Positions 1-45,734 of a stretch of DNA of 64,000 bases are shown here, one piece after another. Within the stretch, counting starts at the first letter, position 1; each line of letters starts with the position of its first letter. The translations under genes were made by a program, and so were the position numbers. The notes beneath the pieces were generated by a model. It saw only the letters and a list, made by a program, of their open reading frames with translations, did no database searches and was not told the DNA's origin. This DNA is from Nemertoderma westbladi (taxonomy: Eukaryota > Animalia > Xenacoelomorpha): NCBI GenBank assembly GCA_032718475.1, contig JAUCBJ010008272.1:33280-97279 (forward strand), given 5' to 3'.

Positions 1-419
1 TGAATTTGTAGGTAGGCCTACGCCTGCCCCAATCTGCCAATCAGCCAATCGTGACATTCCTGCATTCCCCAGTTCTGGGTACAGGACTGGAGGACTCTGG
101 ACTCTGACATTATTACCATCATTCTGTCATTGTCTTACTGTCAGACTGTCCCAGTCAGCCAGTGCTGTGTGCTGTGCTCGAGCTGCAGCCTGCAGTGCAC
201 AATCTGACAGTACACTACCGCTGTACCGACTACCACTGACCACCAGGATGATCTGATCACGAGTAGTCTGTTAGTCAGTTAGTACCGGTAGTCTGTAGTC
301 AGTCAGTACAGTCTGACAGTCACAGTGACAGTCGTAAGTCTGCATGTAGGCAGGCACCACACCACTTCTGCACGGTACAGTAAGTCCCCTTGTAAAACGG
401 GTACGTACTAAAAGGTAGA

Positions 420-520
420 ACGATCTATAACGGGCTATAACGATCTATAACGGGCTATAACGATCTATAACGGGCTATAAATTCCTATAAACAAGCTATA
501 ACCACCTATAACGAGCTATA
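420..520. repeat. Short 10/20-bp tandem repeat (ctataacggg/ctataacgat)
   Basis: Directly visible. Confidence 0.8.
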
Positions 521-1260
521 ATATGAAAATTTACATTAAAAAAACGCCCATAGGGTGTGTTTAACTTTTGGATTAGCACTGCGGTGTGAAAAATACCGCA
601 GGTTAAAAATTTGGGTAGGCCTATGCCTAATTGATAGGCCTACTGCAGTTAGCAGTTAGTACTGGTTCGTTTTTTTATTGGCCTATATTGCTCGCGTATT
701 CTATATCGACTACAACACAATGCCTATATCAGCATATCGACGTACTACACTACTACTTAGGACTACTGCTTACCGCTTCCGTCGTTCCATGTCAGGCTAA
801 TACTCTCACAGTAACAGTAACAATAACATAATATATCATATCTTATTGCAGATTTTCCCGGCATCCCGGAGCCGGAACCACGCCGTCACATCTCCACCGG
901 CTGACCGGTAAAATTTCAACATTTGTTGGTTATATTCGAGATGTTCTTATAGTGCGGTGACGAGTCGCGAGAAACCCGGATCGGAGGAGAACGACAAGCA
1001 AACCAGTTATCAGCCTTACGTTGATGCGCGAATAAACCATGGCTGCATGGGACGGGGACTAGACTATGAATTACTACTATCCCAAAGAATGCTACAGCGC
1101 TGGGGGGGGGGGGGGGGGGGGGGGGGTACCTGACTAATGAATCAATATGCTGACTAATGAAGTAATGACTGATTTCATGATACCAAAAAGATGAAAAGCA
1201 GTATGGAATAAAAAAACCAAATTGCTTAATTAAATTACTGACTAGGAAAATAAATCCATG

Positions 1261-4200
1261 CTAAAATATAGCAGGGCTGTAACTCCTGGGTGAAGGGTGC
1301 AATACAATTGCATCAGAAGGTTTAGGATTACGATCGGTGTATCCGCCGGTCGAGGTACCTGGTTGATCGATATCAACTTCAGTGGATCGAGGTCTAACGG
1401 CCTTTAGGGCGCGTCTTAGGACAGCAGCTCCTACTGGTCCCTGACGAGTCGTCTGGACAATAGCGGTAGGTGGACCGTGAGTGGTGAGAAACTTCCTCGG
1501 TTTAATGGTTCTTTCCAGCTCGCATTCTCGGGCTTGATATTCGTAGGGCCGTCGAGATACTTCCTGTAACTCAGGGTGCGAGTTGATAAATAAATCTCCA
1601 TACTCAGGGTCTTGACGGATGAAATTGATCAAATGGTATGAATTAATATCGTTAGGATTGACGTTCCTGAGATATTTTCGAACAAATTTGGTGGAAATAC
1701 ACTCACCAACACGCTTCATTAGTTCGTAACTCGGTGTGCGTGTTTTTTGTTCAACAGACGCGAATAGATAAGGATGGAACGCGTAAACTCCCTCGTAGGC
1801 GCGTCCAGGGTAATAGCGATGGCGTGACTCACAATGCAAATCCGCGTTCGCTTCCCAAGCTCGGATGTAGCGCAGGGTAATCATCTCATCTACGCTTTCC
1901 AGATCGCGGTTAAAAGGGCAATTAAAACTGGCATGTCCTTTAAGTTGACAGTGGTGGCATTGAGTCATAAATTGGGGGCAGACTGCAAAAATGTGCGAGT
2001 TATTGAGTCTGCAATACGCACAATAGATCTCCATCATCGGTTGTTCGTGGAAATAGGAGCAGGGTACGTCTGAGTCCATAGGGGTGAAATGATCTCTCGA
2101 TGCGCATAATCGGCAACGTTTTCGAGAAACATAGTTGGCGTGCCGATAATCGAATGCGGTGAGACATTGTGGACCTTGATACCATTCCAAGACGTAGTCG
2201 TTATCGCTGCTCCGGGGCGCTGTAGGCTGAATCTCCTCAGATTCCAAGCATATTGGTTCGTCTTCCAATTGCATAGCTGAGATAGGTGCGGCTGTCTCCG
2301 CAAGCGAACCCACTGTCTGAACTTCCACGACAGAATAACCCGTGGGTATTCGAGGTCTTTGTATAACAGATGAATGTAAGTTCTGTATACAAACGTCCTT
2401 GAAAAGGGCGAATCCCGCGCTGTCTAACTTCTCTGCAGCTGAGTCTCTTAGGCTGAGTTTGGTCAGAGCGCGGTCCTTGAACTGACTATCAACGTTACGG
2501 AATGGAGTCAGAAAGCGCCTGAAACATTCGAAGCGGATGAATTTATTGTGTTCATCTAGCTTGGCGAGTTTAGTTCCAAGTATTAAGGGATGGGCGCGTA
2601 TGGTACGACTGCACACATCGGCTAGCCAACCGGCAAGTGCGGCGTTTTCAAAGATCGTGTAGATAGCTAAGGAGGGACGGAGTGGAACACTCATGAAGCT
2701 ATACACGGCGTCAGGTGCGGTCAATGGTCCATCAAAGTATAATCGAGAATAATGGTCTCCGTATACTTGTTGATAGTTGATGGGATTTCCGACTTTGAAA
2801 TTCCATCCGTATTCTTGAAAGGCAAGATGTCCGATGGAGGTTCGTTGTACTTTAGTAATGCCGCTGGGTGTATTTGCATACATAGCGCGGAAGAAACCTC
2901 GGCCTTCTGCCCAGGGAGCAATCAGCTGAGTATCGACGAAAGGGTATGGAATGTTCTCCATGTTCCGAAAGTCGTTTTGTAGATCTCCATAAACAGCTGA
3001 GCCGATTTTAAGGATTCTTTCGTTAAACAACATCTCGAGCACGGGCTGGGGTAACATCGATCCATCGATACCCATGGCCGGTTTGCGCTCGGTGTCGGTG
3101 ACGTAACGCTGCGCGAGTTCGAATTGTCCATGTCGGAGTTTCTTTTGTATCTCGGTAAGGGTCTCAAAAGAATAATCAATCACATCGGAACACGCTCGAG
3201 TAAATACGTGGGTAGAACCAGCTAGTCCTCGTATATGTATCATTCGCGTAGTTCCCAGTTCTCCAACCGGAACGCTACCTTCGTTATCGTAAGTGACAAC
3301 TCCATACATCTCGATAACGTTAAGAGTCTCATTCCACTCTTTAGTGGCGTTTTCTAGAGTCATTCCCACTGGATGCCACAAGGTGGCGCATTCGCTAGCA
3401 TTAGGTAGATCTCTATACTTCAAATACTGTGTAGTATATGTTTCTACATCTCCATATCATTGTATTCTTTCCTCCTCGAATAACACGTCGATATTCCAGT
3501 GGACTAATCGAGTTTTGATAAATCCATCAAGATTATACGGAGGTATTGTATCTTTCTCTATTCTTGAAACATTATAGGGTTTTCGGAATGAGTTTACTTT
3601 CACTAACTGATCCAGATGTTTCTGCAGTTGTTCGAGTTCGACAAGATCGAGAGGATTTATTAGTGGTAGAAACCTCAGACTATGTGTAGGATCTTCCAGT
3701 TTTACCATGTAATATTGCGTTAGATTGACGTAATAAGGGTGATCTTTGATCCCATAAAACGAGTTCGGTAAAGGTCTAGCGCGTATGTTAACATTGTGTA
3801 CCATACGACGGACAAGATCCGCTCTATTGTCCGGAGGTTCAACAAGTAAACCATCGACACGAGCGGCCTCGATTGGCGGACGTTGCAACATGGGAGCGTC
3901 AGCGATGAGATCTCGAGATCTTAGGTTGATATCAACCGGTTGAGGTTGTGCCGTGGCGAAGAGTTTGTCTCCAAAATGGGGAACCATCGAAGGATGGATG
4001 ATGGTTTTAGAATAGAGATCCGTCAAAAGAATTTGAGCTTCTGGCTGGGCCAAAGCTGCTTCTTCTCTCTCATCCATTTCTATGTGTTTCTCCTCGAGCT
4101 GATTTTCCTCCGCTTGTTGTTGTAAACGCTCGTCTAGGAACTCTTGTAAAGAGTAGGTTCGTCCACGTTCGATGTCTTCCTCGAGATTCTGGATTTCTCT

Positions 4201-5439
4201 ATCGAACTGGGGTAAGGCTAATTCTTTCACCGCTTGGACTTGTTGCTGCAATTTGCGTTTCTCTAAACAATCGTAAGTTCCTTTTCCGATTTTCTGCCGA
4301 ATAGCGTCTAACGCGTTTCGTACAACGCTCTCTTCGACTTCGGTAACGGGTTGTATCGGTGTTAAGCCTGGACGGTTGTACGGGTTAAACGGCGATATTA
4401 GATGACCGCGTCCTAATCCGGCTAGGTAGGGTTGTCGAATATCTAGTGCGCCCACTACCGTAGTGCCACCGATTAATTGTTCGGGTAACACAAGATCTTT
4501 AAATAGTGAGTACAGTTCAGGGGGATCCGTTATACTATTAGGATCAAGCGTTTGAGGTCTCACTGAGGAATGAGGAGGTCTGACCGAGTATTCCGGAACT
4601 CTGATCATTGGTTTATTTAAGGATCGTTTGAGTCGAGCGAGCGTAGGTGATACGTAGAACAGGTTTCGCTCGAAACTCCCATAAGTATATCGTGTAAAAC
4701 AGTGTTTAGCGCAATGTCTCCGCGGATGTTTATGTCTTTTCGTTTGCTGATTGGGTCTAGAGCATTCGTCGCAGTAATACCAAAGACGCACGTCCTGCAG
4801 GGGAAACGCGGGTGATCGTTCTCCAGTTTTACAATATTCCTCCATCTGTTCGAAGCTATCTGGGATGACAGGTAGCGGTCGATCGGCGGTAAGATACATC
4901 ATAGTGAAATAGAGTCGTTTGAGTTCTATCATAGGGTCATGATGTATACCTTGAGGATATCGAGTTTCTAGATTTTGTTGACTGTCAATATTGAGATATG
5001 TTTCTCTCAGGAATTCCAGATAATCGTTGAAGTTGCTGCATTTATCCGGCTCTTCAACGTCTTCCCTTTCGAGTCTGTTTCGAATAGAATTCTCATGTTC
5101 TATTCTCGGTTTATCGTTCCGACTCCGCTGGGTATGATATTTAAATAAAACCATTTCCCTTTCGGTGTCTACATCGTCCGTATCGTGTAAATCGATAGGA
5201 TGGCCAGTAGTTAAGAAGTCCATATACGTACCATTACGATGCGTATAGCGAGCGGTGAATTTTCTATAGTCCAATTCACGCGTAAGTTGCTCCTGGGACA
5301 TTGGCGGTTCGATATAACGACCATCGTCCTCCGTAGTAGTTGGACCAGCGTCGCCGCGTATCAAGCTATCAACAAACGCTTGTAAAGGTAGAGTATATCG
5401 CTCCCTGATACCAAGATCATCTTCTATCAACTCAGTCAT
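1261..5439 (-). CDS. Accessory ORF of the BEL element (~1392 aa reconstructed; one in-frame TGA at 3457-3459): Zn motif, helical region, DEDDy-like 3'-5' exonuclease, three CCHC fingers
   Basis: ORFs 3457-5439 and 1261-3423 are in the same frame, and copy 2 reads through the junction (EERIQ-R-YGDE). Exonuclease-like motifs: VVTYDNEG, LPQPVLEMLFNERILKIGSAVYGD, FVDTQ, SIGHLAFQEYG, PLRPSLAIYTIFE. Knuckles: CRLC-x4-H-x9-C, CAYC-x5-H-x4-C, CHHC-x4-H-x4-C. Confidence 0.8.
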
Positions 5440-7076
5440 ATCTGCTATATGAGTTTATCAATATTATAATGAGTTTATATTTAGGCTAGCGGGCGTCGCT
5501 GCCTACCCCTCTCTGCCACCGGACAGTGCAAGATCCTCAGCGCCAATGTACCGTCGTCGCTGTGTTTTCGCCAATGTAGTAGCTACACAACGACAACGAT
5601 AACCGGCACAAGTCACTCCACTGTCCGTCCCAAAGGCTTAGATTTACTTCAGGTTCTTGCTGCAGAGTTAGGGCTACTTTCACAATTGCGACTCGCTACT
5701 GTAAACACACTTTAGTAGTAACATTCACCTATAAACGCACAAATTCCACACAACTGTCACAAATTGTACACATTCGGGCCATTTGTCCGTTAGTCAAGTG
5801 CCTTCCAGAATGCCACGTTATTATTATGTATCCTTGGATACTAGCAGTGTGCTATTTCTTCCCTATGCTATTCAATGGGGTAAGCTTTCTATTGTTCTTT
5901 TAACTCACTTCTAATTCTAGCGTGGTTGTTGCTATGGTGACATTATGGAAAGCTAGCGGTAGAATTAGGGTAATTCTCATGCATACAGATCTGGGATGCT
6001 ATTTAATAGTAATTCTTTAATTGTCAATATCCCCTTTATACATGATTTTATGAATTTTATCGGCTATTGACTATATATTGGAGATTCTCGCACACTAATA
6101 CACTTAATAGGGTGAATCTCCGCTCCCATGATCTATTAATTAATGGAATTTTGGGAATGTTATAAATTGTATAAAAATTACAATTTATCAAATTCATTAA
6201 AATATGAATTTAAATTTATTCCCGTAAATTTTATTATTTAATATTAAATAGACACAATTTTATTCCAGAACATGTTTGGGGACTAGGATCCTGAATTCTA
6301 AGAAATATGTCCTTTTAAGAGTATCGGTAAGTGCTACGATATCTTAATAGACTAGAATTTTAAAGGATCTAAATTTTGACAGATTTTGTAAATATTAATA
6401 ATTAATATTTAGGTTGGGCACCAGTTTATTCCAGAAGTTATCTGGGGACGTTAACCACTGATTCTAGAATTTTGTCTTTCAAGTATATCGGTGGGTGCCG
6501 CGATATCTTAATCGACTAGAATTACAGATGGTCAAAAGGTTTAACAGATTTATTTTGCGTTTTACGCTACTGTTAAAGGGACATCACGCTACTATATGTA
6601 TTATTTAATATACGGTATGAGAGCAATATCGCACGAAGCAATGTCAGTGAGAAGAGGCAAGTCGTTTCCAAGGTCTACCCAGAGCTTGGTTTAGCCGAGA
6701 CACGGGGATCTGAATTTTGCATTCCTAATACTCTACTTACCAATAATACTTGAATATAGTAGGAGCTTTATTGTACTTTAATAAGTACGGATATTTCATC
6801 TTACTGTAGTCACGTATTTATAATGTAATACGGACAGTAAGGAAAGAGAAAAATAATTATCTCTCGCCGTCGCACTAAATATATAATATATAAGTAATTA
6901 AGTAATAAACACTAATATATATTGCACTAATCTACTAAATAATCGCTAAAATAACATTCTACTAAATAAAATTAAAGAAAACGATTATAATAAAATTACA
7001 TAATAATACATACATAAATATAAAATAATAAAAACAAATATAAAATAATATAGTCACACACCCACTCCAGACGCTG

Positions 7077-8507
7077 TTACGTTGGGGAGTCCCTAGATGT
7101 TTGTTGGATTAGGGAGGTGGTCTTGGGAAGAGTATCTTGCCTTCCATAGTTTCCGGAGAGTTCTCTGTCTCTTTCCAGTAAACATAAACGACCAACTGGG
7201 CGATTGAGCTGCTGTGTCTCGAAGACAATTCCCGGTTTCTTAAAGTTACGTCGCATGACGACGAGTTCTACCGATTGCACTAAACCATCATCCGAGATGT
7301 GAGTCTCGATGATACGACCACAATAAGGACCATGTCTCCAACGCTGACGTTTTCTTGTTGCGCAAACCACTTAGTTCGAAGTTGTAGCGTGGGCAGATAA
7401 TGTTTTTCGAAATGGTCAGCGAAACGATGGGATAACAACTGCATAAGTTGCCAAGTTTGCTGGCAGTATCCGTCTCCGTCTGTGATTTCCGATCGTGGGA
7501 GCATGGCTACAGGTTTCTTCAGTAGGAAGTGCGCGGGTGTTAGCGCTTCCAGGGAATCGGGACTCGATGAGACTGGCATAAGCGGTCTCTCGTTGAGATA
7601 GGCGGCGATTTCCTCCATTAACGTCCGCAAAAGTTCATCGGTGAGATACGCGCGGCACGGCACTATAAAGTGAAATGCGGTCTTCACGCTCCTGATTAAT
7701 CTCTCCCAACTTCCTCCCCACCAAGGGGCGTCGGCAGCGTTGAAGGTCCAGCTAGACGCTGTTACCCTTAGCTGATCGTCCACCTGTCTTTGGTTCCAAT
7801 CTTTGACGTAAGCCTTGATTTCATTGTTGGCACCAATGAAGTTTGTTCCCTTATCAGATCTCATCGTGTTACTAGTTCCAAAGCGAGCGATCTGTCGTCG
7901 TAAGCTCAATAGGAAGCTGTTGGTAGATAAATCGTTCACCATATCGAGATGGATAGCTCTACAAGTCATACAAACAAAGATGACACACCATCTCTTGACT
8001 ATAGTCCTAGCACGATATACTTCAATAGGGCCAAATAAATCTACACCGGTATTAGTAAAGGGTGGTTCATAGAAGCTTACTCGTTCCCTAGGTAATTCTG
8101 CCTCTCGCTGTGTTAAAGGCCTACTGAATGCTTTCCTACAGGGTATGCAGTTCCTAAGAACTTGGTTCAGAGCTCTACGGGGTTTATAAAAATAATAGCG
8201 AGTTCGAATTTCGCTAAGAACTCGTTCTCTGCCAGCATGATAAAGTTTGCTGTGAACATCTACAATCATCTTGATTTATATTTCAAGATTTCTAATGAGT
8301 ATGGGAAACTTAGTGTCAAAGGATAATGGAGCATTAGTTAACCTTCCCCCAACACGTATTAACCCATCTATCATTGTGCTAGAGAAACGATCCCTTAAGC
8401 GCATCCTGTGGATTTCTCAACAACAGGAAATACTTATCGGAATCCTCATAGCATTGCAGGAGTCTCAGCATCTGCTTATTGGTTTCTTCATGCTCCTGAT
8501 AACTGAT
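7077..8507 (-). pseudogene. Integrase and C-terminal part of Pol, disrupted
   Basis: HHCC (H..H..CIPC), GVDLFGP, SDKGTNF, GGSWERLIRSVK. Relative to copy 2 there is a 1-bp insertion near 8405 (ccacaGgatgcgc) and a ~34-bp deletion near 7318. Confidence 0.9.
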
Positions 8508-11500
8508 CTACTCCTTCAGAAACCTGTCGGATATCTTATATTTGAGAAGATCTTTAACAACATGGACCTGCACAGATGTCAGTAGAGCGGTATCACTATT
8601 GGTCATCGTCCTGGAGTAGTGATGATGAAAACATCGCTTTAAATATGTAACGGCCTTACAGAGCCGATTCCAGGAACTGTAGTGATATATCGCTCTCTGC
8701 AGGAGAGGTGAGAGTCCTTGCGAGACGTCTGGTATTCCAGATTTCCAATCCTTCTCTCTGATTTCCACAACAGACTTATTTGTGGCTGTGGGTTTCGGAT
8801 CCAAAGCGTCGTCTCCGGAAGTGTGTAGTACAGACAGATCTACCACGGGTTTAAATAACTTCGATTTACTCGCCCGAGTTTTAGGTTTGACTTTCTCCGC
8901 TCCCTTGGCCTGTCTAATCTCCGCTGTAGTAAGATGAGGAGGCCATTCTTCCTCTTCTTTGCTTAGGAAGTCGGGTCCACCTAACCAGTCTGGAGTATCT
9001 ATCAGTTCTTGTGGAGTTGCTCCCCTGGAGGCGATGTCTGCTGGATTAATCGTTCCGGGGCAATGTCTCCATTGATCCATCTTCGTACGACTAAGTATAA
9101 TGGCTACTCTTTTGGTAACGAAGACGCTGAACTGACAGACTTCATTGGTTATATACTCCAACACGAGTAGAGCATCGGTCCAATAGACAGTTTTCTCCAG
9201 TGGATATTCGATCTGTTCTGTTACATTTCGGCCGATGGTTGTAGCGTATAAAGCTGCCTTTAACTCCGCTCGAGGGACTTTCAACTTGTTGTTTATCAAT
9301 GCCTTAGAGGTAACCAAAGCGACTTTGATTCCATCCGGAGTTTCAACTCTCAGGTAGGCTACTATACCTATTCCGATATCGCTGGCGTCTCCAAACACAT
9401 GGAGTTGATAGGAATACGTAGGGAGAACATGACCAAAATATGAACGGGAAATTATAAAGTTCTCGATGGCTGGTAGAGAATCTTCCCATTTCATCCACTT
9501 CTTTAATAGTTCTCCCTTAAGTGGATCGTCCCATGAGTGGTTTTCAAGCCACATTTGTTGTACTAAACTCCGAGCAATCAATATAACTGGGCTAATAAAT
9601 CCCAATGGATCGAAATAAGTGCTCAGGATACTTAAACAAATCCGTTTAGTCCGAACTGGATTATCTCGCTGTTTGAGCTGAAATAACAGGATATCTCTCT
9701 CTGTGTCCCATTTCAAACCAAGTGTTTTGGTTTCTGGAAGATCGTCTTTCATTAGGTCTAGATCTTTCGCTCCTCGATCTTCTACCGGGATCGATTCCAG
9801 AAACTCACGGGAGTTGCTGGTGAATTTAGTTAATCGAAATCCACCTCTTTTTAAGCACTCTACCGTTCCTTTGGCGACATCAATGGCTTCTTCCACCGAT
9901 GGAAGGGACTTTAAATTGTCGTCCATGTATATATCCCGTTTGATGTTGTCGATCACCTCTTTTGAGAAGGCGTCCCGGTTGTCATCAGCAGTGGTGCGCA
10001 CCACTGAGCAGGCGTTTGAAGGGCTTGAGATGATCCCAAAGGCCTGGATGGTCATCCAATACTCCACCAGTTTCTGGTTGAGGTCTCCTTCCGGCCACCA
10101 CAGAAATCGTAGGCTATCTCGATCCCTATCCAGCGCCTTGACTTGTAAGAACATGCCATCTATATCGGAGGCGAAAGCGATCGAATATTGTCGTAATCTT
10201 AAGAGTATTCCCAACAAGGATTGGAGTAAGTTGGGTCCTGGTAACAACTCGGAATTAAGGGATTGGCCCATGTAGAGGGCGGAGCCGTCAAATACTACCC
10301 TTACTTCATGGGGTTTACCGGGTTTGGGAACGTAATGATGTGTTAAATAGTACGTTCTCTCAGTTATAGGTGTTTCTTCCGGTACTCGCTCCGCATATCC
10401 CTTGTTAATAAATTTCTTCAACTGAGTCTGATACATTTCTTTAGCTGAAGCATTTGCCGTGAGGCGTCGATGTAGTTGAGCAATTCTTTTCTCCGCCAAG
10501 GGTCGGTTGTTTATGAATTTTGGTTCTCGCTTTCGGAATGTTAGACCGATTTCATATCTACCTTGATCTTTAAGAAAACATGTAGTTGTCTCCTGGATCT
10601 GCTTGGCTCTTTCTTCTTCTACCGATAGGGTCTTATCGTAGGAATTGGGCTCTACAGCCTCTTGAGTAAAGAATCGTACGGCGTGTTCATCCCGAGTCTT
10701 CGCGTTATAGCGCTCGATTACGTCATTCAGTTCGTCGTTATAGTCGACTTGTCCTGATGGACGAATGAGTTGACATAGGTTCACTTGGTTTTGCCAAGTC
10801 TCGTTTTCCGTAAGGAGATCGATGGTATTCTCCTCGTCGAAGAGTTGGTGGATATCGTCATTATCTGAGGAGTATGGTGTTCCCTCAGTTGGGTCATCTA
10901 CCTCACTGCTCTCCACTTCCCATTCACTTACTTGATATACCTGTTCTTTTGGTAACCTTTCCATGAGAGTTCTACGGGAAGGGCCAGTAAAGTACCAACC
11001 CACTCTAGTTCTTCCCGCATAGGCTTGTAGTGGTTGCGGTTGAGCAGGCCGTTTCTCCAATGTCTCAAGCGCCTCATGCGCATTTTGGCCGATGAGTATT
11101 TGTACTCCAGGGTAATCTGTGTTGAATCTAGGTATATTAAGCCGCTGGGTGAAATCGTCCTCATCCCAGTTATAAGGTTCTACTTGGCTGGTAGCGAAGT
11201 TCTTTATCGCCACCATTTTTACTGACCTTATGCTGTATTCTCCTAGTTCATCCTGGGGGGTGGACAACGCACCTACATAATAATCCGCTATTACTGTAGA
11301 TTTCCAAACCTGCATAATTCCTGACATGTTTAACTTAGTTCGGAATTTGGGTTGTCCAGCAAAGATGTCTTCAGCTAGTTCTTTGTCGATGAATGTTCCT
11401 GTGCTACCGGAGTCAAGGAGGGCGTTCACTATATAACTCCTTTCAGGTCTGTGGACCCTCAACTGCACTACGGGAAATTCTCGGATTCCTACATTGGAAG

Positions 11501-14500
11501 TTGTTGCTTTCCAAGATGGTTGTCGGTCAGAAGCAGTTAGGGGGAGCTCGCTGTCGGTGTCCTTTTCATACGTAAGTGCTCGATACACTGCGGTATTTAT
11601 CTGGTAACAGGATTCGTTTTCGTCGGAGAATTCGTCTGTATAGAATCCTTCCATCTCAGAACTTTGGTCAGTGTCATTCACACCACTGAATTGGACATGT
11701 AGTTCGGACTCACTTACCTGACTCGGGCTGTTTCGCTCGAATTCAGTGTGCAACAAGATATGATGTTTCGCACCGCACTTTGCACACCTTGCGTCGGAGT
11801 AACAGGTTCGCCGTTGGTGTCCTTGTCTGAGGCAATTATAACACAACCGCTTATCCCACATGACTTCACGTCTATCCTTTAATGATTTCTTTAGGAATTC
11901 ATCACACACATTCAAACGGTGGGGCCCGTCACACAGCGCACATTTCGGTTTGATGTTACTTACCTTATTTTGAGTAACGTTGTGTACACTCGTTCTTTCT
12001 TCGGGCTTTCTTACATGAATTCTCTTAGGAGACGTAGGAGGAGTTTTTCTTACCTGTTCTCTCCTGTCATTGGTTCGAGACTTGAATTTACTTACGTCTT
12101 TAGGCGTTTTGTTGACATAATAAGATCTTTCAGTGTCTTTCCCGCTGTCTTCTTCTTGAGAAGCCTGGCTTTCGCCGTCGTCGGTATAACACACTGGTGT
12201 TACCTTTCTCCTAGAAACGGGTTTCTCACTTACCTTGTTTTCCGGTGTCTTCTCTCTGGACTGCTTTAGGAGCTGTAATTTCACTTCTCCATCTAAGAAT
12301 GACATGAGATCAGCCATGGTAGGGTCTCGTCGTTGTTGTTCCATCATATATAACACTTTCTTATCCCAGCGTGTACCTACTCCACCCTTCGGTAAAGTAG
12401 AGGCCACGGCTCCAATAACCATAGAACTCTGATATTCATGAGACTTACCTAGCCAATCTAATTGTCTACAGATCTCCTGAATCTCATCGGAAAACTCTAT
12501 AATCCCGCTGCTAATGAACTTTCGGGGGGCTACCAATTTTGCATACAAATACCTAGCTATGTTATTCCTATTACCATACCTGATGTTTAGGTTATCCCAA
12601 ACTTGTCTTAGTCCATCTGGATGTCCAATAAACTTTAACGCCATTAACTTGGGAGATCCTTCCAAGCACTCGATGAGGAATCTAAGTTTCTCTCCGTTAG
12701 ATAACACAGAGTTCTGTATGTTATCCTTGTAATATTCATTAAAAGGTAACCATTTCATCTCATCTCCATTAAACTTGACGATCTCTCCCACCTTTACCGC
12801 TTGACGGGCTTCGGTTCTAGCCATTTGACGCGTAAAACTTTCTTGGGCCATCGTATTATTTAATATCGAGTTATCAGTATATAAATTTCTCGGATTATGA
12901 TCAGGTCTATATGGAATATCATTGTCAACAGGTTTATAATTACCCTTAATAGGGTTTACTATAGGAGTTTCTACTTCACTAGCAGTATAGATGCGTGTAG
13001 GCTCCACACCTTGCGCATGAAATACTTCAGACCTAACAGGTTGACACATTGTTACCGGGGTTGGTGGTATACCCTTTTGTATATTTACTAATTTATCACG
13101 TTCTAACGCGATATTCTGCTGCACTTCTTGCAACTCTAACCTACTTTCCCTTGCTGTTCCCTTGAACTGCTGAACAGTTCCTTCCATCTCCCGGACCTGC
13201 TGAGAGGAGCACTGGCGGTGTTCCCTCAGCTGCCCGAGCAGGAGACCCATCTCCCGTCGTCCCTCAGCTACCCACTCGACCGCTGAAGCGGGAGTCACCA
13301 ACGTAGTAGCGGGCGAGCGAGAGACGACGGGCGATAAATTCTTGATCTCTCGCTCGGCGTCCAGGACGGGTTCGGACTCGGGAACAGTCCTACAGGGCAC
13401 AGGTAGTTTAGTACTGTGCAAAGGGAATTTAGAGGTAGGTTCTGGGAGTACAGGTGTCTCTATCACCGAAGGGGTGGCTTCGAGAACAGGCCTAATTATT
13501 TCAGGCTCATCTACTATAGTAGGGAGTCTTTCTATTTTAATTATTTGGTCTGTGGGTTCTGTACTACCTAAGTCTGTGTTAGTTAGTTGCCTTCTAACAG
13601 CTGGGGGTAAATTAGGCAATTTCTGACGGTGGGACATTCTTCTACGTCTGCTTAGATGAGATCTATTTCCTCCGCCTTCAGGATCGGTGGTATCGCCTTC
13701 ATCAGATGATGTATATCCCTGTCTTTTGGGAGTAGATCGACTCATCATCTGCATTTGACTAGCTGTTAACTGTTTATTTATGCGGTCTTGATTCTCTTGA
13801 ATATTTTCCAACTCTAGTTGGGTGGTCTCTTCAGATGCTCTTCGTTCTGCTTCTGCCACGGCTCGCTTTCTTTCCGCTTCTGCCTCTGCTGCTGCCGCTG
13901 CTGCTATCTTTCTGTCTTCTATACGTTTTTTCTTTACTTGTTCTTCTTGGACTCTAGCGATGCGGAGGTGTTCATCAAATTTAGCTTGGTTCGCAGCTAT
14001 CATATCCGCATCGATTGCGTCCAACACAAGCATGGCTCCTTCACTATTAGGGCGAAGTCCAGACAGCCGTCTCCTCAACTCTTCGTCACCTACAAATCGT
14101 TGATAGTCTGACAGATAGATGTCAATAGCATCCCTCTTATGAGGTTTTTCTGCTGTCACTTCACTTTCCACTTGGGAAAAGGTAGCATCTGTTGATTCTC
14201 CATGGGTTGAGCGCTCAGCCAACTGAGATTTCCACGGGGCAGTTCTTTGAACTTTGAGACTCACCCGCTGAAACCAAGTCTTTACGGCAACTTGCAACGA
14301 CGTGTCTTGTCTTCTTTTCGAAGCCTCCTCAAAGGCCGATAAGATTAGTCTGATTCTTAGAATTCTTTCTCTAACTTGATAAAGCAGCTCTCCCTGCTCT
14401 TGAGGTCCTTGGGGTTGTCGAAACAGTTGTTCCTCTAATCGCTCCATAGAGCTGAAGAATCCCTGTACGTATCCTGCTGCCAACCTCTTCCACACAGCTG

Positions 14501-15083
14501 GATCGCTGGTTTCTTTTGCCACTCCCATCCTGTGTATGTCCTCCCAGGCAGCTTCCGATAAGTCAAACGGGAGTCCGGGTCCGGGGAAGTTCCATTGCGA
14601 CTCGACAATAGACTTCAGTTCTTCCCTTGTGTATCCCGCATAACTATCCTTGGTCGATCGCTTACTTCTCGCCCAATCAATCTGGTGTTCCTCCACCGCA
14701 ATCAATACCCTAGTGAGAATGTCTGCAGGAAGTATGAGAAGGGGATCCGAATAAACCGCATCTGCCATCTTTGCTCCGCGCTCGGGTGTCAGCTCTACAG
14801 TATCCGCACTACTGGAGCTGTCGGGCCTTTGAGAAATAAGTTCTCGGCTCGAGTGTTGCTGCTGTTCCGCTGCTTCTTGGTCTCGCTTGACTTGAGCTCG
14901 AGTGCCTATGATAGACCTACGGTGTTGGACTAGCCTAGGGTCTGATACTACTACTGGAGGGATGATCTTTCTTACAGTAGGAGGTGAGTTGAACTTCGGT
15001 CTCACACGTTCCACACTCCTGTCTGGGTCACAGATGGTTGTATCTAGGAGACTGTCTGACAGGTTTTGCTTCGTTTCAGACAT
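8508..15083 (-). CDS. BEL/Pao Gag-Pol polyprotein (Gag, protease, RT, RNase H), ended by a premature TAG
   Basis: DUF1759-like KFNGDEMKWLPF; triple Cys/His knuckle CALCDGPH..C / CYNCLRQGHQRRTC / CAKCGAKHHILLH; protease LLDSGS; RT YMDD; RNase H LHVFGDAS. The TAG at 8508-8510 aligns with AAG in copy 2. Confidence 0.95.
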   Translation of the reverse strand: MSETKQNLSDSLLDTTICDPDRSVERVRPKFNSPPTVRKIIPPVVVSDPRLVQHRRSIIGTRAQVKRDQEAAEQQQHSSRELISQRPDSSSSADTVELTPERGAKMADAVYSDPLLILPADILTRVLIAVEEHQIDWARSKRSTKDSYAGYTREELKSIVESQWNFPGPGLPFDLSEAAWEDIHRMGVAKETSDPAVWKRLAAGYVQGFFSSMERLEEQLFRQPQGPQEQGELLYQVRERILRIRLILSAFEEASKRRQDTSLQVAVKTWFQRVSLKVQRTAPWKSQLAERSTHGESTDATFSQVESEVTAEKPHKRDAIDIYLSDYQRFVGDEELRRRLSGLRPNSEGAMLVLDAIDADMIAANQAKFDEHLRIARVQEEQVKKKRIEDRKIAAAAAAEAEAERKRAVAEAERRASEETTQLELENIQENQDRINKQLTASQMQMMSRSTPKRQGYTSSDEGDTTDPEGGGNRSHLSRRRRMSHRQKLPNLPPAVRRQLTNTDLGSTEPTDQIIKIERLPTIVDEPEIIRPVLEATPSVIETPVLPEPTSKFPLHSTKLPVPCRTVPESEPVLDAEREIKNLSPVVSRSPATTLVTPASAVEWVAEGRREMGLLLGQLREHRQCSSQQVREMEGTVQQFKGTARESRLELQEVQQNIALERDKLVNIQKGIPPTPVTMCQPVRSEVFHAQGVEPTRIYTASEVETPIVNPIKGNYKPVDNDIPYRPDHNPRNLYTDNSILNNTMAQESFTRQMARTEARQAVKVGEIVKFNGDEMKWLPFNEYYKDNIQNSVLSNGEKLRFLIECLEGSPKLMALKFIGHPDGLRQVWDNLNIRYGNRNNIARYLYAKLVAPRKFISSGIIEFSDEIQEICRQLDWLGKSHEYQSSMVIGAVASTLPKGGVGTRWDKKVLYMMEQQRRDPTMADLMSFLDGEVKLQLLKQSREKTPENKVSEKPVSRRKVTPVCYTDDGESQASQEEDSGKDTERSYYVNKTPKDVSKFKSRTNDRREQVRKTPPTSPKRIHVRKPEERTSVHNVTQNKVSNIKPKCALCDGPHRLNVCDEFLKKSLKDRREVMWDKRLCYNCLRQGHQRRTCYSDARCAKCGAKHHILLHTEFERNSPSQVSESELHVQFSGVNDTDQSSEMEGFYTDEFSDENESCYQINTAVYRALTYEKDTDSELPLTASDRQPSWKATTSNVGIREFPVVQLRVHRPERSYIVNALLDSGSTGTFIDKELAEDIFAGQPKFRTKLNMSGIMQVWKSTVIADYYVGALSTPQDELGEYSIRSVKMVAIKNFATSQVEPYNWDEDDFTQRLNIPRFNTDYPGVQILIGQNAHEALETLEKRPAQPQPLQAYAGRTRVGWYFTGPSRRTLMERLPKEQVYQVSEWEVESSEVDDPTEGTPYSSDNDDIHQLFDEENTIDLLTENETWQNQVNLCQLIRPSGQVDYNDELNDVIERYNAKTRDEHAVRFFTQEAVEPNSYDKTLSVEEERAKQIQETTTCFLKDQGRYEIGLTFRKREPKFINNRPLAEKRIAQLHRRLTANASAKEMYQTQLKKFINKGYAERVPEETPITERTYYLTHHYVPKPGKPHEVRVVFDGSALYMGQSLNSELLPGPNLLQSLLGILLRLRQYSIAFASDIDGMFLQVKALDRDRDSLRFLWWPEGDLNQKLVEYWMTIQAFGIISSPSNACSVVRTTADDNRDAFSKEVIDNIKRDIYMDDNLKSLPSVEEAIDVAKGTVECLKRGGFRLTKFTSNSREFLESIPVEDRGAKDLDLMKDDLPETKTLGLKWDTERDILLFQLKQRDNPVRTKRICLSILSTYFDPLGFISPVILIARSLVQQMWLENHSWDDPLKGELLKKWMKWEDSLPAIENFIISRSYFGHVLPTYSYQLHVFGDASDIGIGIVAYLRVETPDGIKVALVTSKALINNKLKVPRAELKAALYATTIGRNVTEQIEYPLEKTVYWTDALLVLEYITNEVCQFSVFVTKRVAIILSRTKMDQWRHCPGTINPADIASRGATPQELIDTPDWLGGPDFLSKEEEEWPPHLTTAEIRQAKGAEKVKPKTRASKSKLFKPVVDLSVLHTSGDDALDPKPTATNKSVVEIREKDWKSGIPDVSQGLSPLLQRAIYHYSSWNRLCKAVTYLKRCFHHHYSRTMTNSDTALLTSVQVHVVKDLLKYKISDRFLKE

Positions 15084-15219
15084 GTTTGTTTGTACAGTTG
15101 AATGCCTACTGCTATATTACAGTTAAAGCAAGTCTAGTAATTCAGTATCAACTGTTAGCCTAGTAATTAATTACCGATACTGTTACTCAGTGTAACGTGA
15201 TATATATATATAATATATT

Positions 15220-15595
15220 AGAATACCGGTATGCTTATAGTATATATATAAGTATTATTACAGACTAGGTTTGTCACAGAATACCGGTATATAATTTCAG
15301 CGCAAATATATATAAATATATAATAGGCCTATCGTGAATACTGGTATACAGCTTACACTTATAGTATATATAAGTATAATTATTACAGACTAGGTTTGTC
15401 ACAGAATACCGGTATAATTTCAGCCTAAATTTATAAATATAGAATAGGCCTATCGTGAATACCGGTATGCAGCTTACACTTATAGTATATATAAGTATAA
15501 TTATGGACTAGAATTAATTACAGAATACCGGTATAATATCAGCCTAAATTTATAGAAATAAATATAATGAGCCTATCGTAAATACCGGTATGTCA
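15220..15595. repeat. ~3 diverged ~120-bp tandem units in the BEL 5' leader
   Basis: Recurring tattacagactaggtttgtcacagaataccggtat / ggcctatcgtgaatac(c/t)ggtat blocks. Confidence 0.7.
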
Positions 15596-17117
15596 ATTAT
15601 TTTAGAATAATTGAATTTCTGAATTTTAGGAGTTACTTGGTTACTTTACTTTACTTGATTGCCGTTATTTAAGCAGTAGTCCAACTGACATTAAGACCTA
15701 ATTGTTGTAAGACAGGCCTACTATTTTATAAATCAGTTTGAGTTGATTTATAATATATATATACCCGTATAATGGGTTTTGTCAATATTTGAAATAAATG
15801 TTATTATTTCTGGGAAGGAGTCACTGCACAGAAGCTGTACGCTCTCAGTGAAGTGCTACTTGTTGGACACTAAAACAAATAATTCTAATTTGCCTAAGTT
15901 ACTTAATACTACAAATTACGTACAATTCGGGGTGAGATTACAATCTCTAAATAAACACAAAAATTACACGTACGAATTTTTAGGGTAATTTCACAAGAAG
16001 TCTACAAACCAGCCTAACAAAGGGTTAGAATATCTGGTTATTACAAACAGGCAGGATTCTACGGTATTTGAAAATAACAAAGCAGTAGTAAATATACTGC
16101 GTTGTCCAGATAGGAAAAATACCACCGTCTGACGACTTATAGCCGTATCGCTATAAGTACTACGTTATGTATCATGGAGTGTTCCTACCTAGAAGTTAAT
16201 TACCGCGGCCTACCAGAGCCAACGTGCCTATTAACCACTTTACAACACAAATATACTGCCTACACACTAATTACCTTCGGAAAGCACTGTACACTAAACC
16301 CTAAATTAGGTACAAGTACTTATACAACAAATAATCAGCAGTTAAAAATACTTATACAGCTAAAAGAACCACGGTATCTGCTGGAGTGATCAAAGCATAT
16401 AATCTCCAGTCTTTACCTACGCCAAACAGCCCTGATGTAGTACCGGGGTTAATTTAACTATAACGGTATGTATAACAAGCACAATTACTGTAGGAATAAA
16501 CTTGGGGGTATGAATGTTGCGAATAATCGCATAAACTCTGAATAATAAATATTACGCTACCCTTACAGACTATACAAAACAAAATACAGACCAAACGCTG
16601 GCAGACCACTATCAAGCCTAAATAAACCACAGTATATGCAGACTCAGAAATGGTTAGTTAGTATGCGTTCTAACCGAGTAGTACGACTTATTCTTTCAGG
16701 GGGATTTACCTTACAGCACTGGATGTCACCCACTTTCCTAACTAGTACTTTAGCGGAGATACACTCTACACACACTGTAATCTCCTCAGACTTAACTACA
16801 GTCAGACAACAGTCCAGCCTACAAATTACCTGTACAATCTGAGCAGGCTTACACGTCTTCTGCTCAACATCAACTTACAGATAAATAAAACTGACAGAAA
16901 TAAGTAAAATCTCAATAAAAAACCAGGGCGGCCGTCCCTGATTAAATATCAAGACCTACCGGTATATAATTATCAAAATCGAATAATACTGCTGTACCTG
17001 TACTGCTGTAAGTACCGGTCCGGGTGGTTAGGAAGTCAGGCCTACCAGTTACCGGTCGACCGGTACTTTAGACTGTATTTATTGCCTACACTGCAATCAG
17101 AACTCAATAACTGTTAT

Positions 17118-18292
17118 TGTTCGCGCTTTCAGACCTTTAGCAGTTTAACCTGCCAAATTTAGATGTCTTCTAGATTATAAATCGACTTTAGCCTATGACG
17201 AGTATTTGATACACTACATTAGCCGAAGCCAGTCTATGCGCGACCATTCACCCGCTGGATATACCCGGGAGACTGGATTCGGAAGCTTTGACCTTATTGC
17301 GGTGTAGGCCTACTGTATTATTCGACTGATTGTTAATATATAATTTCTGACAAATATTATTCACTTTCGGGAAATATCAACAGTTCCTTTAGGACGTGGC
17401 ACTCTAAATATGTAAACAGAGTTATGACTTACACTAAACACAATGGGATGGCTATTGATTCACGTATAAAGCGCATTCTTTAGGAGATGCTTTGTTATCA
17501 GTCACAATCATGCACACTACCGCACAATGCTACACACCGATCTGCCGACCTTCACTAATTTTAGTCACATATAAAGAGAACAGCAACCGACACATGTAGT
17601 GCCTATGAAATAGCATTAGATTCACTCCAAAACCACTTTAATGTAAGTCGCAATTGTTATATGTAACCGGTCTCTTAACTTCAGTATATCAAGAAGATTG
17701 GGGTTTTATGATTATTTATCGATATTATCCAAATATAACAATATTCCATCCACTGATATAATTAATAACAGACAGTAAATAGCAGTAAAAATGTGGTGTG
17801 GTATATGAACACACTGACTTGCGTGAGTTGATATGATTAGGTGAGATAGGATAACAGTTATACGTTTCTATGATCAAGCCTACTAATGTTTGGCTAAAGC
17901 CTGAAACACAGAAATTCCAAAGCCGGTCTTCTGGCATCAGGAAAAATACACACACTGACTGAATTGCATGAGTTTCTGTATACAATCTCCAACACAGAGT
18001 GAAAACCGCTCTGATTGGTCGACCGAACAAAGAACGAACAAAGAACAAAGAAAAAGTTACATGTGGACACAGCTGATAGATGTCGTCATCTGAGTTCCGA
18101 TGTTTAGAGTATTTGGCTTATTGCGACATAAAATCGCTAGTTATGTCCGCTAAAGTACACATACAGAAGAAATGGCTTTTTATGTCCACTAAAACACCGG
18201 TACAGTAAGGAAACGGCTTTTTATGTCCGTTAAAACAACTACAGAGTACTTTGCGGGGAAAATAATCAGCTAATTCCGCAAAAGCCTTTACA
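17118..18292 (-). repeat. 5' LTR of BEL copy 1 (~1175 bp)
   Basis: Minus strand begins TGTAAAGGCTTTTGCGGA and ends GCGCGAACA, matching the termini of the other two LTRs; CCAATCAGAGC box shared by all three. Confidence 0.85.
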
Positions 18293-18377
18293 TATTTCTT
18301 CAAACTGTCAGACTGATGATTTCTGGACTGTCAGACAGTTGATTTCAACATGCCTATGCCAATACATTCAACATTTG

Positions 18378-19879
18378 TTGATTTCTGGTCTGTCGGACAG
18401 TTGGTTTCACTATGCCTGTGCCAAAACAACATTCAAAATTCCATGATTTATAGACTATGAGATAGATTTTCATATGCGCCTGTCAGCCTGTGGTAAAAGA
18501 CTCTAAATTTAATAGTTTGTGGTTGTTGTCGATAATCGATTACCACACTCATTTAGCAATAAAACAGAGGCGGGCCTTTCTAACAAAACAATAAACGGCC
18601 ACTTTACCAAATCAGGGAAAGGAGCAGGTTTACAGAGGCGGGCCTTTCTAACCAAAACAATAAACGGTCACTTTACCAATTCAGGGAAAGGTGCAGGTTT
18701 ACAGAGGTGGACAGACCAATTGCTACAAACTGCTTTGCATAATACGTTTCTGATTGGTCTGTCCGTTGTCCATTTTCTGTGTCCAGTCCACCTTTTTCAA
18801 ACACCCGTTTCTCTCTACTGCTGTTCTCTCAGGACTCAGGCTATCAGTACCGGTATTAGTATAGGCCTATAGAGCACTATTTTGTAGTATTGCTATTGTA
18901 TGTACAGATGTAGGTATAAAGCAGGTATTTTAGCACCGGTTCCGCCACCGGTACTGCTGTAGGCCTATTGTGTAGCCTACCATTTAAATACGGTAATGCA
19001 AGGCCTACCGGCTGACCGGTTGTTTTGGTCAGAAAATCCCGCCTCTGTAACCTGCTCCTTTATTTCAATTGGTAATGTTATCGTTTATTGTTTTGGCTAG
19101 AAAAGACCATCTATGTAACCTGCTCCTTTCCTTCATTTGGTAAATTGATTGTTTATTGTTTTGGTTAGAAAATCCGGCCTTAACCTGCTCCTTTCCCTGA
19201 TTTGGTGAAGTGACCGTTTATTATTTTGGTTAGAAAGGCTAACCTCTGTAACCTGCTCCTTTCCTTCATTTTGTGAAGTGACTGTTTATTGTTTTGGTTA
19301 GAAATTCCCGCCTCTGTAACCTGCCGCCTTTCCCTCAATTAGTTAAGTGATCGTTTATTGTTTTGGTTAGGAAATCCCGCCTCTGTAACCTGCTCCTTTC
19401 CCTGATTTGGTAAAGTGACTGTTTATTGTTTTGGTTAGAAAATCTCGTCTCTGTAACCTGCTCCTTTCCCTGATTTGGTAAAGTGACTGTTTATTGTTTT
19501 GGTTAGAAAATCCCGCCTCTGTAACCCGCTCCTTTCCCTCAATTAGTTAAATGATCGTTTATTGTTTTGGTTAGAAAGGCCCGCCTCTATAACCGGCTCC
19601 TTTCCTTCATTTGGTAAAGTGACTGTTTATTGTTTTGGTTAGAACATCCGGCCTTAACCTGCTCCTTTCCATCAATTGGTAATTGTTTTTGGCTATAAAA
19701 TGAGTGTTTTGCTACGTCATGTGGTAATCGATTATCGACAACAACCACAAACTATTAAATTTAGAGTCTTTTACAACAGGCGCATATGGAAATCTATCTC
19801 ATAGTCTATAAATCATGGAATCATGGAATGTTTTGGCACATGCATAGTGAAATCAACTGTCCGACAGACCAGAAATCAA
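18378..19879. mobile_element. Foldback-type non-autonomous element: ~170-bp TIRs plus internal 68-bp tandem repeats in opposite orientation in each arm
   Basis: ttgatttctggtctgtcggacag...gataatcgattaccaca (left) is the reverse complement of tgtggtaatcgattatc...ctgtccgacagaccagaaatcaa (right); ~2 units at 18565-18710 and ~10 inverted units at 19020-19690. Confidence 0.8.
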
Positions 19880-21027: not shown

Positions 21028-21780
21028 TTAAATGATTTGTAGATTATTGGTTGTGGTTTGTGTTTGGCTGGTTTTGATGCAATACATCGATATTCCCCGG
21101 CATATCAAAGAAACTCCGACAATAAAACCTCCAATCCAAACGGCAGTAACACCACCGGAAGCAGACTTGACGTTTGCTATGGTAAATGCAGTGGCGACGA
21201 GTAGAAACAGAAATCCCACAGTAACGTAAATAGCGCCTCTGTTGCGCGCAAAGTCACCCACAGACGAGACGCGACCGCACTTGGGACACTTGGACAGACT
21301 GCTCTTCTTATAACACACAAACGTGTCGCCGCAATGCCCACATATCGCGGTAACTCGGTTGGGACAGGCTTCCGTGCTTGAGATTGTTCCTCCAGCGAGC
21401 GTGATTATCCGCTTACATCGCGGGCGCGGACACGACACTTGGTTGCTCTGTAGCCTACAGATTAGCAGATTGTTGCACAGACACCGAATATACCTCCTAC
21501 CACTAGGGGGCGCTTTCACCGCTGACGACTCACCACAATGACCGCATTTAACCACCGTATGTTTGGACTTCCCCTTCAGACTGACTGGAGACATGCATAC
21601 ATTGCACTCTATGTTGGGAGTGGCTGTCTGGTCCAGACTGTAGGCGGGGGGTTTGACTTCTTCGAAGGACAACGGTACGGAGGACTCGGGGGCTGTAGGT
21701 GTGGTAAAATCATCTTGGATATTGGAGTAGTAGGATGGCAAGTCCGGTTCAACCAAACGGTCGCTGTCTTTAGTTGTCAT
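21028..21780 (-). CDS. TMEM55: TMEM55/PIP4P-family protein, 250 aa, single exon
   Basis: PPAY motif; CxxC pairs CNVC, CGHC; APPSGRRYIRCLCNNLLIC...CPRPRCKRII; two C-terminal TM helices; ATG at 21780 (MTTKDSD). Confidence 0.9.
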   Translation of the reverse strand: MTTKDSDRLVEPDLPSYYSNIQDDFTTPTAPESSVPLSFEEVKPPAYSLDQTATPNIECNVCMSPVSLKGKSKHTVVKCGHCGESSAVKAPPSGRRYIRCLCNNLLICRLQSNQVSCPRPRCKRIITLAGGTISSTEACPNRVTAICGHCGDTFVCYKKSSLSKCPKCGRVSSVGDFARNRGAIYVTVGFLFLLVATAFTIANVKSASGGVTAVWIGGFIVGVSLICRGISMYCIKTSQTQTTTNNLQII

Positions 21781-21792
21781 GACGATATATGT

Positions 21793-21865
21793 AATAATAA
21801 TAATAATAATGCATTTGTATAGCGCCAAATTTACAACAACAGAAGTACGCTAAGGCGCTTACGTC
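21793..21865 (-). mobile_element. 3' tail of an L2-type LINE or L2-dependent SINE
   Basis: Minus strand gtaagcgccttagcg...ggcgctatacaaatgcatt(att)n, a stem-loop followed by an (ATT)n tail. Confidence 0.55.
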
Positions 21866-22043
21866 ACAAGCAATATAACATTAAAACTAGCAGTGCAAGT
21901 AGTACAGAAATTAAAAATTATAGTCGTCACTAACGATAAAACGTGCAGATCAAAATGACTAAAGGTTATTACAATCGTTAAAAAGTGGAACATACAGTAC
22001 AAATTGATATATACACTCTACTACAGTATATACTATATATATG

Positions 22044-23855
22044 TACTATACTATACTATACTATACTATACTATACTATACTATACTATACTATACTATA
22101 CTATACTATACTATACTATACTATACTATACTATACTATACTATACTATACTATACTATACTATACTATACTATACTATACTATACTATACTATACTATA
22201 CTATACTATACTATACTATACTATACTATACTATACTATACTATACTATACTATACTATACTATACTATACTATACTATACTATACTATACTATACTATA
22301 CTATACTATACTATACTATACTATATACTATACTATACTATACTATACTATACTATACTATACTATACTATACTATACTATACTAACTATACTATACTAT
22401 ACTATACTATACTATACTATACTATACTATACTATACTATACTATACTATACTATACTATACTATACTATACTATACTATACTATACTATACTATACTAT
22501 ACTATACTATACTATACTATACTATACTATACTATACTATACTATACTATACTATACTATACTATACTATACTATACTATACTATACTATACTATACTAT
22601 ACTACTACTATACTATACTATACTATACTATACTATACTATACTATACTATACTATACTATACTATACTATACTATACTATACTATACTATACTATACTA
22701 TACTATACTATACTATACTATACTATACTATACTATACTATACTATACTATACTATACTATACTATACTATACTATACTATACTATACTATACTATACTA
22801 TACTATACTATACTATACTATACTATACTATACTATACTATACTATACTATACTATACTATACTATACTATACTATACTATACTATACTATACTATACTA
22901 TACTATACTATACTATACTATACTATACTATACTATACTATACTATACTATACTATACTATACTATACTATACTATACTATACTATACTATACTATACTA
23001 TACTATACTATACTATACTATACTATACTATACTATACTATACTATACTATACTATACTATACTATACTATACTATACTATACTATACTATACTATACTA
23101 TACTATACTATACTATACTATACTATACTATACTATACTATACTATACTATACTATACTATACTATACTATACTATACTATACTATACTATACTATACTA
23201 TACTATACTATACTATACTATACTATACTATACTATACTATACTATACTATACTATACTATACTATACTATACTATACTATACTATACTATACTATACTA
23301 TACTATACTATACTATACTATACTATACTATACTATACTATACTATACTATACTATACTATACTATACTATACTATACTATACTATACTATACTATACTA
23401 TACTATACTATACTATACTATACTATACTATACTATACTATACTATACTATACTATACTATACTATACTATACTATACTATACTATACTATACTATACTA
23501 TACTATACTATACTATACTATACTATACTATACTATACTATACTATACTATACTATACTATACTATACTATACTATACTATACTATACTATACTATACTA
23601 TACTATACTATACTATACTATACTATACTATACTATACTATACTATACTATACTATACTATACTATACTATACTATACTATACTATACTATACTATACTA
23701 TACTATACTATACTATACTATACTATACTATACTATACTATACTATACTATACTATACTATACTATACTATACTATACTATACTATACTATACTATACTA
23801 TACTATACTATACTATACTATACTATACTATACTATACTATACTATACTATACTA
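22044..23855. repeat. (ATACT)n pentanucleotide microsatellite, ~1.8 kb
   Basis: Directly visible; only about three interruptions. Confidence 0.99.
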
Positions 23856-45729: not shown

Positions 45730-45734
45730 TTGTT

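Follow-up and report, generated by a model that had tools for sequence, protein, structure and literature searches.

A 64,000-nucleotide stretch of the Nemertoderma westbladi genome (Xenacoelomorpha; assembly GCA_032718475.1, contig JAUCBJ010008272.1, positions 33,280 to 97,279 of the forward strand; hereafter the window) contains two long copies of a BEL/Pao retrotransposon that carry a large open reading frame (ORF), here called the extra ORF, behind gag-pol. In copy 1, which spans 17.0 kb on the minus strand, a 5' long terminal repeat (LTR) with a TG start, a CA end and a tandemly duplicated start region (17115–18292) is followed by a leader of about 2 kb (15117–17114; 80% identical to copy 2), a gag-pol frame of 2,202 aa from stop to stop (8508–15116), an integrase piece that a break sets apart from the main frame (7280–8275), a block consisting of a purine run, a TG and an AT-rich part (6670–7062), and a conserved non-coding stretch (5440–6004) that precedes the extra ORF. 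The latter begins with an ATG at 5439, extends to 1261 and lies on the same strand as gag-pol (15116–7280). Copy 2 (32660–45727, plus strand) consists of an LTR (32660–33706), a decayed gag-pol, a spacer and the extra ORF (42775–45727). Judging from its sequence, the extra ORF is a genuine gene under selection, very probably cargo of a large BEL/Pao family, and probably encodes an RNase D-like domain with zinc knuckles.

The assignment of the element to BEL/Pao, proposed in an earlier reading of these letters without database searches (the sequence-only reading), is supported by both its proteins and its termini. The gag-pol product matches the Pfam models DUF1759 (E value 8.5e-11), Peptidase_A17 (E value 4.2e-36) and DUF5641 (E value 5.2e-8); a long N-terminus, DUF1759, three knuckles, protease, reverse transcriptase (RT) with a YMDD motif, and Peptidase_A17 are found in the main frame, Integrase_H2C2 and DUF5641 in the integrase piece, and the order protease-RT-RNase H-integrase is of the BEL type. 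A solo LTR (27797–28741, minus strand) that aligns with the LTRs of both copies has TG...CA ends and is bordered on both sides by the 5-bp target site duplication CTTAC, in agreement with the TG...CA ends and 4–6 bp target duplications of BEL/Pao elements. It sets the LTR length at 0.95–1.2 kb, and this LTR heads both long copies. No TGG-type tRNA primer site was seen by eye just after the LTR in either copy (17114, 33707), no tRNA genes were found, and a promoter scan, which uses a bacterial model, gave output at chance level. Within Gag, about 780 residues before DUF1759 (window positions 15083–12800) have no Pfam match, and copy 2 has either other sequence or a far shorter version in their place.

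The extra ORF of copy 1 comprises 1,392 codons with a single in-frame TGA at codon 661 (3457–3459). Its N-terminal 660 codons (3460–5439) have no family match in Pfam or NCBIfam; a Cys/His cluster at residues 223–247 (window positions 4773–4700) is a possible further zinc site. An RNase D-like region follows at approximately residues 700–945 (2605–3342), and three CCHC-type knuckles (residues 1109–1174) together with a conserved downstream helix/aromatic motif occupy 1723–2115. All motifs on which the sequence-only reading relied are present, namely VVTYDNEG at 3300, LPQPVLEML at 3054, KIGSAVYGD at 3009, VDTQ at 2937, SIGHLA at 2838, and AIYTIFE at 2667. The three fingers that it listed start at 2115, 2022 and 1959; the last two are near canonical, whereas the first has the non-canonical spacing C-x2-C-x4-H-x9-C. 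The frame is intronless, and its GC content at third codon positions (GC3) is 0.425, compared with 0.435 in pol. Contigs assembled from three public runs depart from the window sequence at 1269–1273 and pass into a different sequence that they have in common (32 contigs of run X1, 14 of X3, and 2 of X5), and loose contig ends, a fall in depth and the divergence of other copies mark a 3' break of copy 1 at 1261–1273. Copy 1 is therefore cut there, the stop at 1261 is probably derived from the flank, and the real end of the ORF and the 3' LTR lie outside the window, so the length of about 1,390 aa given earlier describes a frame that is present and has to be taken as a minimum.

For the middle of the extra-ORF protein, the sequence-only reading had named a DEDDy exonuclease domain of the RNase D-like kind, and we propose D718, E720, D819, Y927 and E931 as its site residues. 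The NCBIfam model TIGR01388 (rnd) matches the protein at an E value of 0.0043, far under the family cut-off. With a profile built from 30 bacterial PF01612 domains the protein scores 9.6 bits, a score reached by none of 500 shuffled sequences, and the same profile gives no score for the N-half or the C-terminal part; its top window among the 1,392 residues is the ExoII motif with its aspartate and the DTQ motif that follows. HHalign gives 71% (E value 3.6e-5) over 47 columns. In the Atlas comparison, the feature score of which serves as a lead only, the top three clusters are all PF01612 (0.89, 0.80, and 0.80), and the best of them is a euglenozoan cluster that combines PF01612 with zf-CCHC. 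It is chiefly the ExoII region that underlies the rnd match, the bacterial profile score and the Atlas ranking.

A search of 1.84 billion protein representatives returned two matches, P0002 (648 aa) and P0003 (633 aa), each a single-member unnamed cluster. Like the extra-ORF protein, both have an exonuclease-like N-terminal part followed by the triple knuckle with its downstream motif; unlike it, they have no long N-half, and their identity to it is only about 30%. P0002 (E value 1.9e-7) is 31% identical over 150 residues extending from ExoII to ExoIII, and its ExoIII aligns on Y927/E931. ExoI, ExoII and ExoIII of P0002 are the top-ranked windows of the bacterial PF01612 profile, its best Atlas cluster, too, is the euglenozoan one (0.86), and in Pfam it matches PF01612 only at an E value of 0.2, while its matches in sequence searches of PDB are only to the knuckles. 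ExoI and ExoIII of the extra-ORF protein could be placed only through the alignment to P0002. The triple knuckle and downstream motif that P0002 and P0003 share with the extra ORF score 21 bits, versus 2.7 bits for the Gag knuckles of the element. In P0003 the knuckle module occurs twice and the nuclease part is degenerate. Word-seeded protein searches limited to proteins of near length gave no match for residues 670–1250 (5,564 candidates), the exonuclease stretch (1,866 candidates) or alignment A2 (7,429 candidates); locus scans of metagenome contigs and viral contigs found no relative, and tblastn gave no matches in phages and one chance match in plasmids.

These findings lead us to favor, as a moderately likely reading, a third, non-envelope gene behind a BEL/Pao gag-pol that is under selection and whose predicted product, in which CCHC knuckles follow an RNase D-like exonuclease domain, is likely an RNA 3'-end factor for the element. 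That the middle domain has a DEDD fold is quite likely. The following observations weigh against this reading. None of the four best-scoring windows of the bacterial profile in the extra-ORF protein falls on ExoI or ExoIII; the alignment of D718/E720 with the DxE of P0002 is equaled in 232 of 500 shuffles; MAFFT places ExoI on D755 instead; and fragment alignments did not place ExoI. At ExoIII, both copies as well as P0002 have YxxxE rather than YxxxD, and residue 718 is N in copy 2. Pfam gives no exonuclease match for the protein and only a sub-threshold knuckle, and sequence searches of PDB gave 0 matches for it and 2 unrelated weak ones for A3. P0003 was matched via its knuckle module, and its exonuclease score is not significant (112 of 500 shuffles). 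Neither copy shows a 3' LTR behind the extra ORF, both being cut at their 3' ends. An AlphaFold2 model built from nearly a single sequence (5 rows) failed to fold (predicted local distance difference test score [pLDDT] of 28.9). A family-guided model (41 mostly bacterial rows; pLDDT of 56.4) matches RNase D, NrnC, WRN and EXD1, with an E value of 3.4e-5 against RNase D in Foldseek/VIA (Z 10.1, root-mean-square deviation 3.6, 169 aligned); as the input to this model was an RNase D alignment, these matches are circular, and they are not counted as evidence. The structure comparison suggested with the sequence-only reading thus agrees with RNase D by construction, its unbiased part having failed. 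Finally, Egalitarian keeps all five catalytic residues, which are not needed for its known role (10.1101/2025.08.03.668247), so catalytic residues alone do not prove activity. Overall, the sequence-only reading is mostly confirmed, with the exonuclease call on weak but concordant evidence: the domain is RNase D-like by the ExoII profiles and by P0002, and because its ExoIII is not YxxxD we do not file the extra ORF as a canonical DEDDy enzyme.

The extra ORF is probably expressed from a subgenomic RNA via the conserved spacer. If the protein is an enzyme, its knuckles would bind single-stranded RNA, the 3' end of which would be fed to a two-metal site formed by D718, E720, D819 and E931. The targets of trimming could be the tails or ends of the RNA of the element itself or small RNAs aimed at the element, and trimming would raise the yield of replication-competent element RNA. 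By analogy with TbRND, the mitochondrial RNase D of Trypanosoma brucei, such catalysis is possible, and we propose it tentatively. Alternatively, the cargo may be a pseudo-nuclease, the domain and knuckles of which only bind RNA while the N-half recruits host factors that move or shield the ribonucleoprotein. The YxxxE form of ExoIII and N718 of copy 2 would fit such a protein, as would its domain insertions of about 30 residues that P0002 lacks, the missing ExoI glutamate of P0003, an N-half as constrained as the exonuclease region, and the binding-only precedents of EXD1, Exuperantia and, functionally, Egalitarian (10.1101/2025.08.03.668247). On the other hand, copy 1 and P0002 keep the four acidic positions and the tyrosine despite an identity of about 30%, and copy 2 is decayed so that N718 may postdate its insertion. 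We consider a pseudo-nuclease unlikely.

The placement of the extra ORF within the element rests on the comparison of the two copies. They are co-linear from the LTR start through pol to the extra ORF and 83% identical over 2454–6004, and their 5' flanks outside the LTR start are unrelated. The extra ORF of copy 2 ends at 45727, before the knuckles, where another repeat cuts in at 45733, and in the part that can be compared its decay is far more advanced than that of copy 1, with one stop and nine non-triplet indels relative to the latter. The sequence-only reading placed the ORF 1.6 kb behind pol in the same orientation in both copies; the orientation and the distance in copy 1 are as described, whereas copy 2 has no counterpart of 6004–6670 and its gap is accordingly about 1.1 kb. 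A 3' LTR directly after pol, which that reading named, for other family members, as the finding that would place the ORF outside the element, was looked for in both copies, and no LTR sequence was detected between pol and the extra ORF in either of them (word size 7, E values up to 1). Since the real LTR does not lie behind pol, the extra ORF is very likely inside the element.

Identity between the copies is 86–87% in the non-coding sequences after pol and before the ATG, compared with 80% in the leader and 74% in the LTR. This high identity around the spacer hints at a cis-acting element, and the stretch preceding the extra ORF (86.1% identical) is a candidate internal promoter or splice acceptor; an AG immediately precedes the ATG of the extra ORF in both copies. 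The block after pol (7062–6670 in copy 1; 41712–42103 in copy 2) is 86.6% identical between the copies and has no match to the real LTR. We considered its TG as the start of a 3' LTR and rejected it, as the block matches nothing upstream of gag. As a separate observation, this block, which is more conserved than the real LTR, resembles a relic LTR or an internal promoter and might record how the extra ORF was acquired.

To measure selection, we compared the two natural copies pairwise, excluding codons within 6 bases of gaps. For 922 of the first 995 codons of the extra ORF, the rate of nonsynonymous substitution (dN) is 0.065 and that of synonymous substitution (dS) is 0.688, giving a dN/dS of 0.09 (bootstrap range 0.07–0.12). 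Constraint is even along the ORF (0.11 in the N-half and 0.08 in the exonuclease region), and the values in pol are 0.09 for the integrase (319 codons) and 0.05 for RT/RNase H (375 codons), whereas the other five frames of the extra ORF give 0.21–3.59 and contain 59–90 stop-bearing codons. Purifying selection on the extra ORF is as strong as on pol. Because pol diverged under selection, we infer that the two lineages continued to transpose together with the extra ORF, and because both kept the junction between pol and the ORF, the latter is most simply read as part of the copied unit.

Contigs of four of the seven listed public runs were aligned to window positions 1–19500; contig depth gives no copy number and was read simply as an indication that the family is repeated. 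Summed depth in run X1 is 128,000–454,000 over the extra ORF, 308,000–904,000 over 7151–12350, and 8,100 over 1–650, and single contigs of run X3 have depths of 7,329 and 5,718 in the ORF and 6,736 in pol, compared with 14 in the flank. In both runs depth is high over the ORF and pol and drops below position 1300. Some contigs from several runs bridge 2266–5072 and 7206–8890 and represent internally deleted family members, one of which has lost the exonuclease region along with the greater part of the extra ORF. Run X5, which bears a second organism label, covers 1273–10891 with pieces of the ORF and pol at roughly 83–94% identity; this material may come from a related species or be mixed.

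It is very probable on these grounds that the extra ORF lies inside the LTRs as cargo of the element, as the sequence-only reading had proposed: two copies that diverged long ago carry it in co-linear order, no LTR separates it from pol, and its dN/dS is that of a gene kept under selection. The purine run, TG and AT-rich block that follow pol could in principle be the remnant of a BEL 3' LTR, and this, together with the absence of a visible 3' LTR behind the ORF, would accord with an ORF that belongs to the host or to another, non-autonomous element, lay beside a BEL insertion and was then duplicated along with it. Such an origin is highly improbable, given that the block has no counterpart upstream of gag, that the copies have no common flank beyond the LTR start, that the ORF is intronless with GC3 and depth like those of pol, and that a passive duplicate would not give a pol dN/dS of 0.05–0.09 at a dS of 0.5–1.1. 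Least probable of all is an envelope-like or entry gene with its anchor in the missing C-terminus and exonuclease motifs arising by chance, for although the ORF stands where env would be, a gene that some BEL/Pao elements carry (PMC9094657), and the true C-terminus lies outside the window, the 1,392 residues contain no membrane-like or signal-like segment (best 19-residue Kyte-Doolittle mean 1.26), in line with the earlier view that the ORF is not env, the knuckles and nuclease-like domain are cytosolic features, and P0002 has both modules in the same order.

Other features of the window include an intronless TMEM55A-like ORF (21028–21849, minus strand; Pfam E value 5.8e-52) that is possibly a retrocopy, and pieces of an inhibitor-of-apoptosis gene (46603–47676 and 55181–55873, plus strand) with three BIR matches and a RING finger, between which lies a frame with a THAP domain (52145–53281). 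A fragment of a non-LTR reverse transcriptase (31600–32604, plus strand; RVT_1, DUF6451) adjoins the LTR of copy 2 on its upstream side. Tandem arrays are found at 22008–23862, 24705–27378, 49657–51546, and from 57756 onward, with units of approximately 50, 62, 53, and 35 bases, respectively.

Among known BEL/Pao elements, env-bearing belpaoviruses such as Atlas virus and Cer13 likewise have a BEL/Pao backbone to which coding sequence has been added behind the integrase; in them, however, this addition encodes a phlebovirus-like glycoprotein fused to the polyprotein (PMC9094657), whereas the extra ORF is separate, apparently soluble and located 1.1–1.6 kb downstream. In PMC9094657 and PMC3118150 the added gene described for BEL/Pao is env, and the word exonuclease does not occur in the main texts of these two papers; the BEL sequence supplements of PMC3118150 could hold elements with an exonuclease gene. 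We found no BEL/Pao element with an exonuclease ORF in the literature, with Repbase, Dfam and subscription journals lying outside the search, which agrees within that scope with the sequence-only reading, where no such case is given as known. PMC12440569 and PMC7968707 served as background only. The upper bound cited for known full-length BEL/Pao elements is 15 kb (PMC3118150), and the 17.0 kb of copy 1 suggests that elements above it are under-described.

The precedent in bdelloid rotifers named in the sequence-only reading is correct (PMC5408684): third ORFs of the RNase D-like DEDDy type have been reported from Juno, Vesta and Athena/Terminons (PMC5408684, PMC6431247, PMC6338049). By its sequence, the extra ORF appears to resemble these ORF3s in being an RNase D-like, DEDDy-type third ORF without a membrane segment, a comparison made with the published descriptions of the rotifer ORFs only. 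It differs from them in its host, a BEL/Pao element rather than Juno/Vesta or Penelope-like elements, in its proposed D-E-D-E motif as opposed to DEED, and in its length of at least about 1,390 codons with a 660-residue N-half. The term CCHC is absent from the main text of PMC5408684, which mentions a Cys-His-Cys motif for Vesta2/5. The rotifer extra ORFs show no clear departure from neutrality according to PMC5408684, in contrast to the dN/dS of 0.09 found here. A gene resembling the DEDDy ORF3s, which in rotifers show no sign of selection or function, occurs here in another superfamily under constraint as tight as that on pol, which suggests that nuclease cargo was gained repeatedly in the env slot across LTR superfamilies.

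Few animal transposons that carry their own factors against RNA-based control by the host have been described. That a BEL/Pao lineage of more than 17 kb encodes an active exonuclease-knuckle protein acting in counter-defence, as a family with P0002 and P0003, seems doubtful; if it does, the YxxxE motif and the conserved motif after the knuckles would be the marks of the family, and silencing small RNAs or tailed transcripts would be de-tailed or destroyed by a transposon-encoded animal nuclease. A specific tie to Mut-7/Nibbler, EXD1 or Egalitarian, all named in the sequence-only reading, was not borne out. These proteins and WRN/EXD2 belong to the same superfamily by motif order and an EXD1-like cluster ranks second in the Atlas comparison (0.80); sequence searches of PDB gave no match to EXD1, Egalitarian, Mut-7/Nibbler or WRN/EXD2, and the nearest feature match is the euglenozoan exonuclease-plus-CCHC cluster.

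That cluster would be the family of TbRND, which combines an RNase D domain with C-terminal CCHC fingers that hold single-stranded RNA and which trims the U-tails of guide RNAs (PMC7797062). Compared by layout, TbRND is the nearest known architecture, with an exonuclease domain followed by tandem CCHC fingers, of which it has four after a short linker and the extra ORF three after approximately 160 residues. The extra ORF also has a long N-half and a distinct motif after the knuckles. TbRND is a cellular enzyme. The two-module layout of a characterized RNA-tail trimmer gives a direct assay for the extra-ORF protein.

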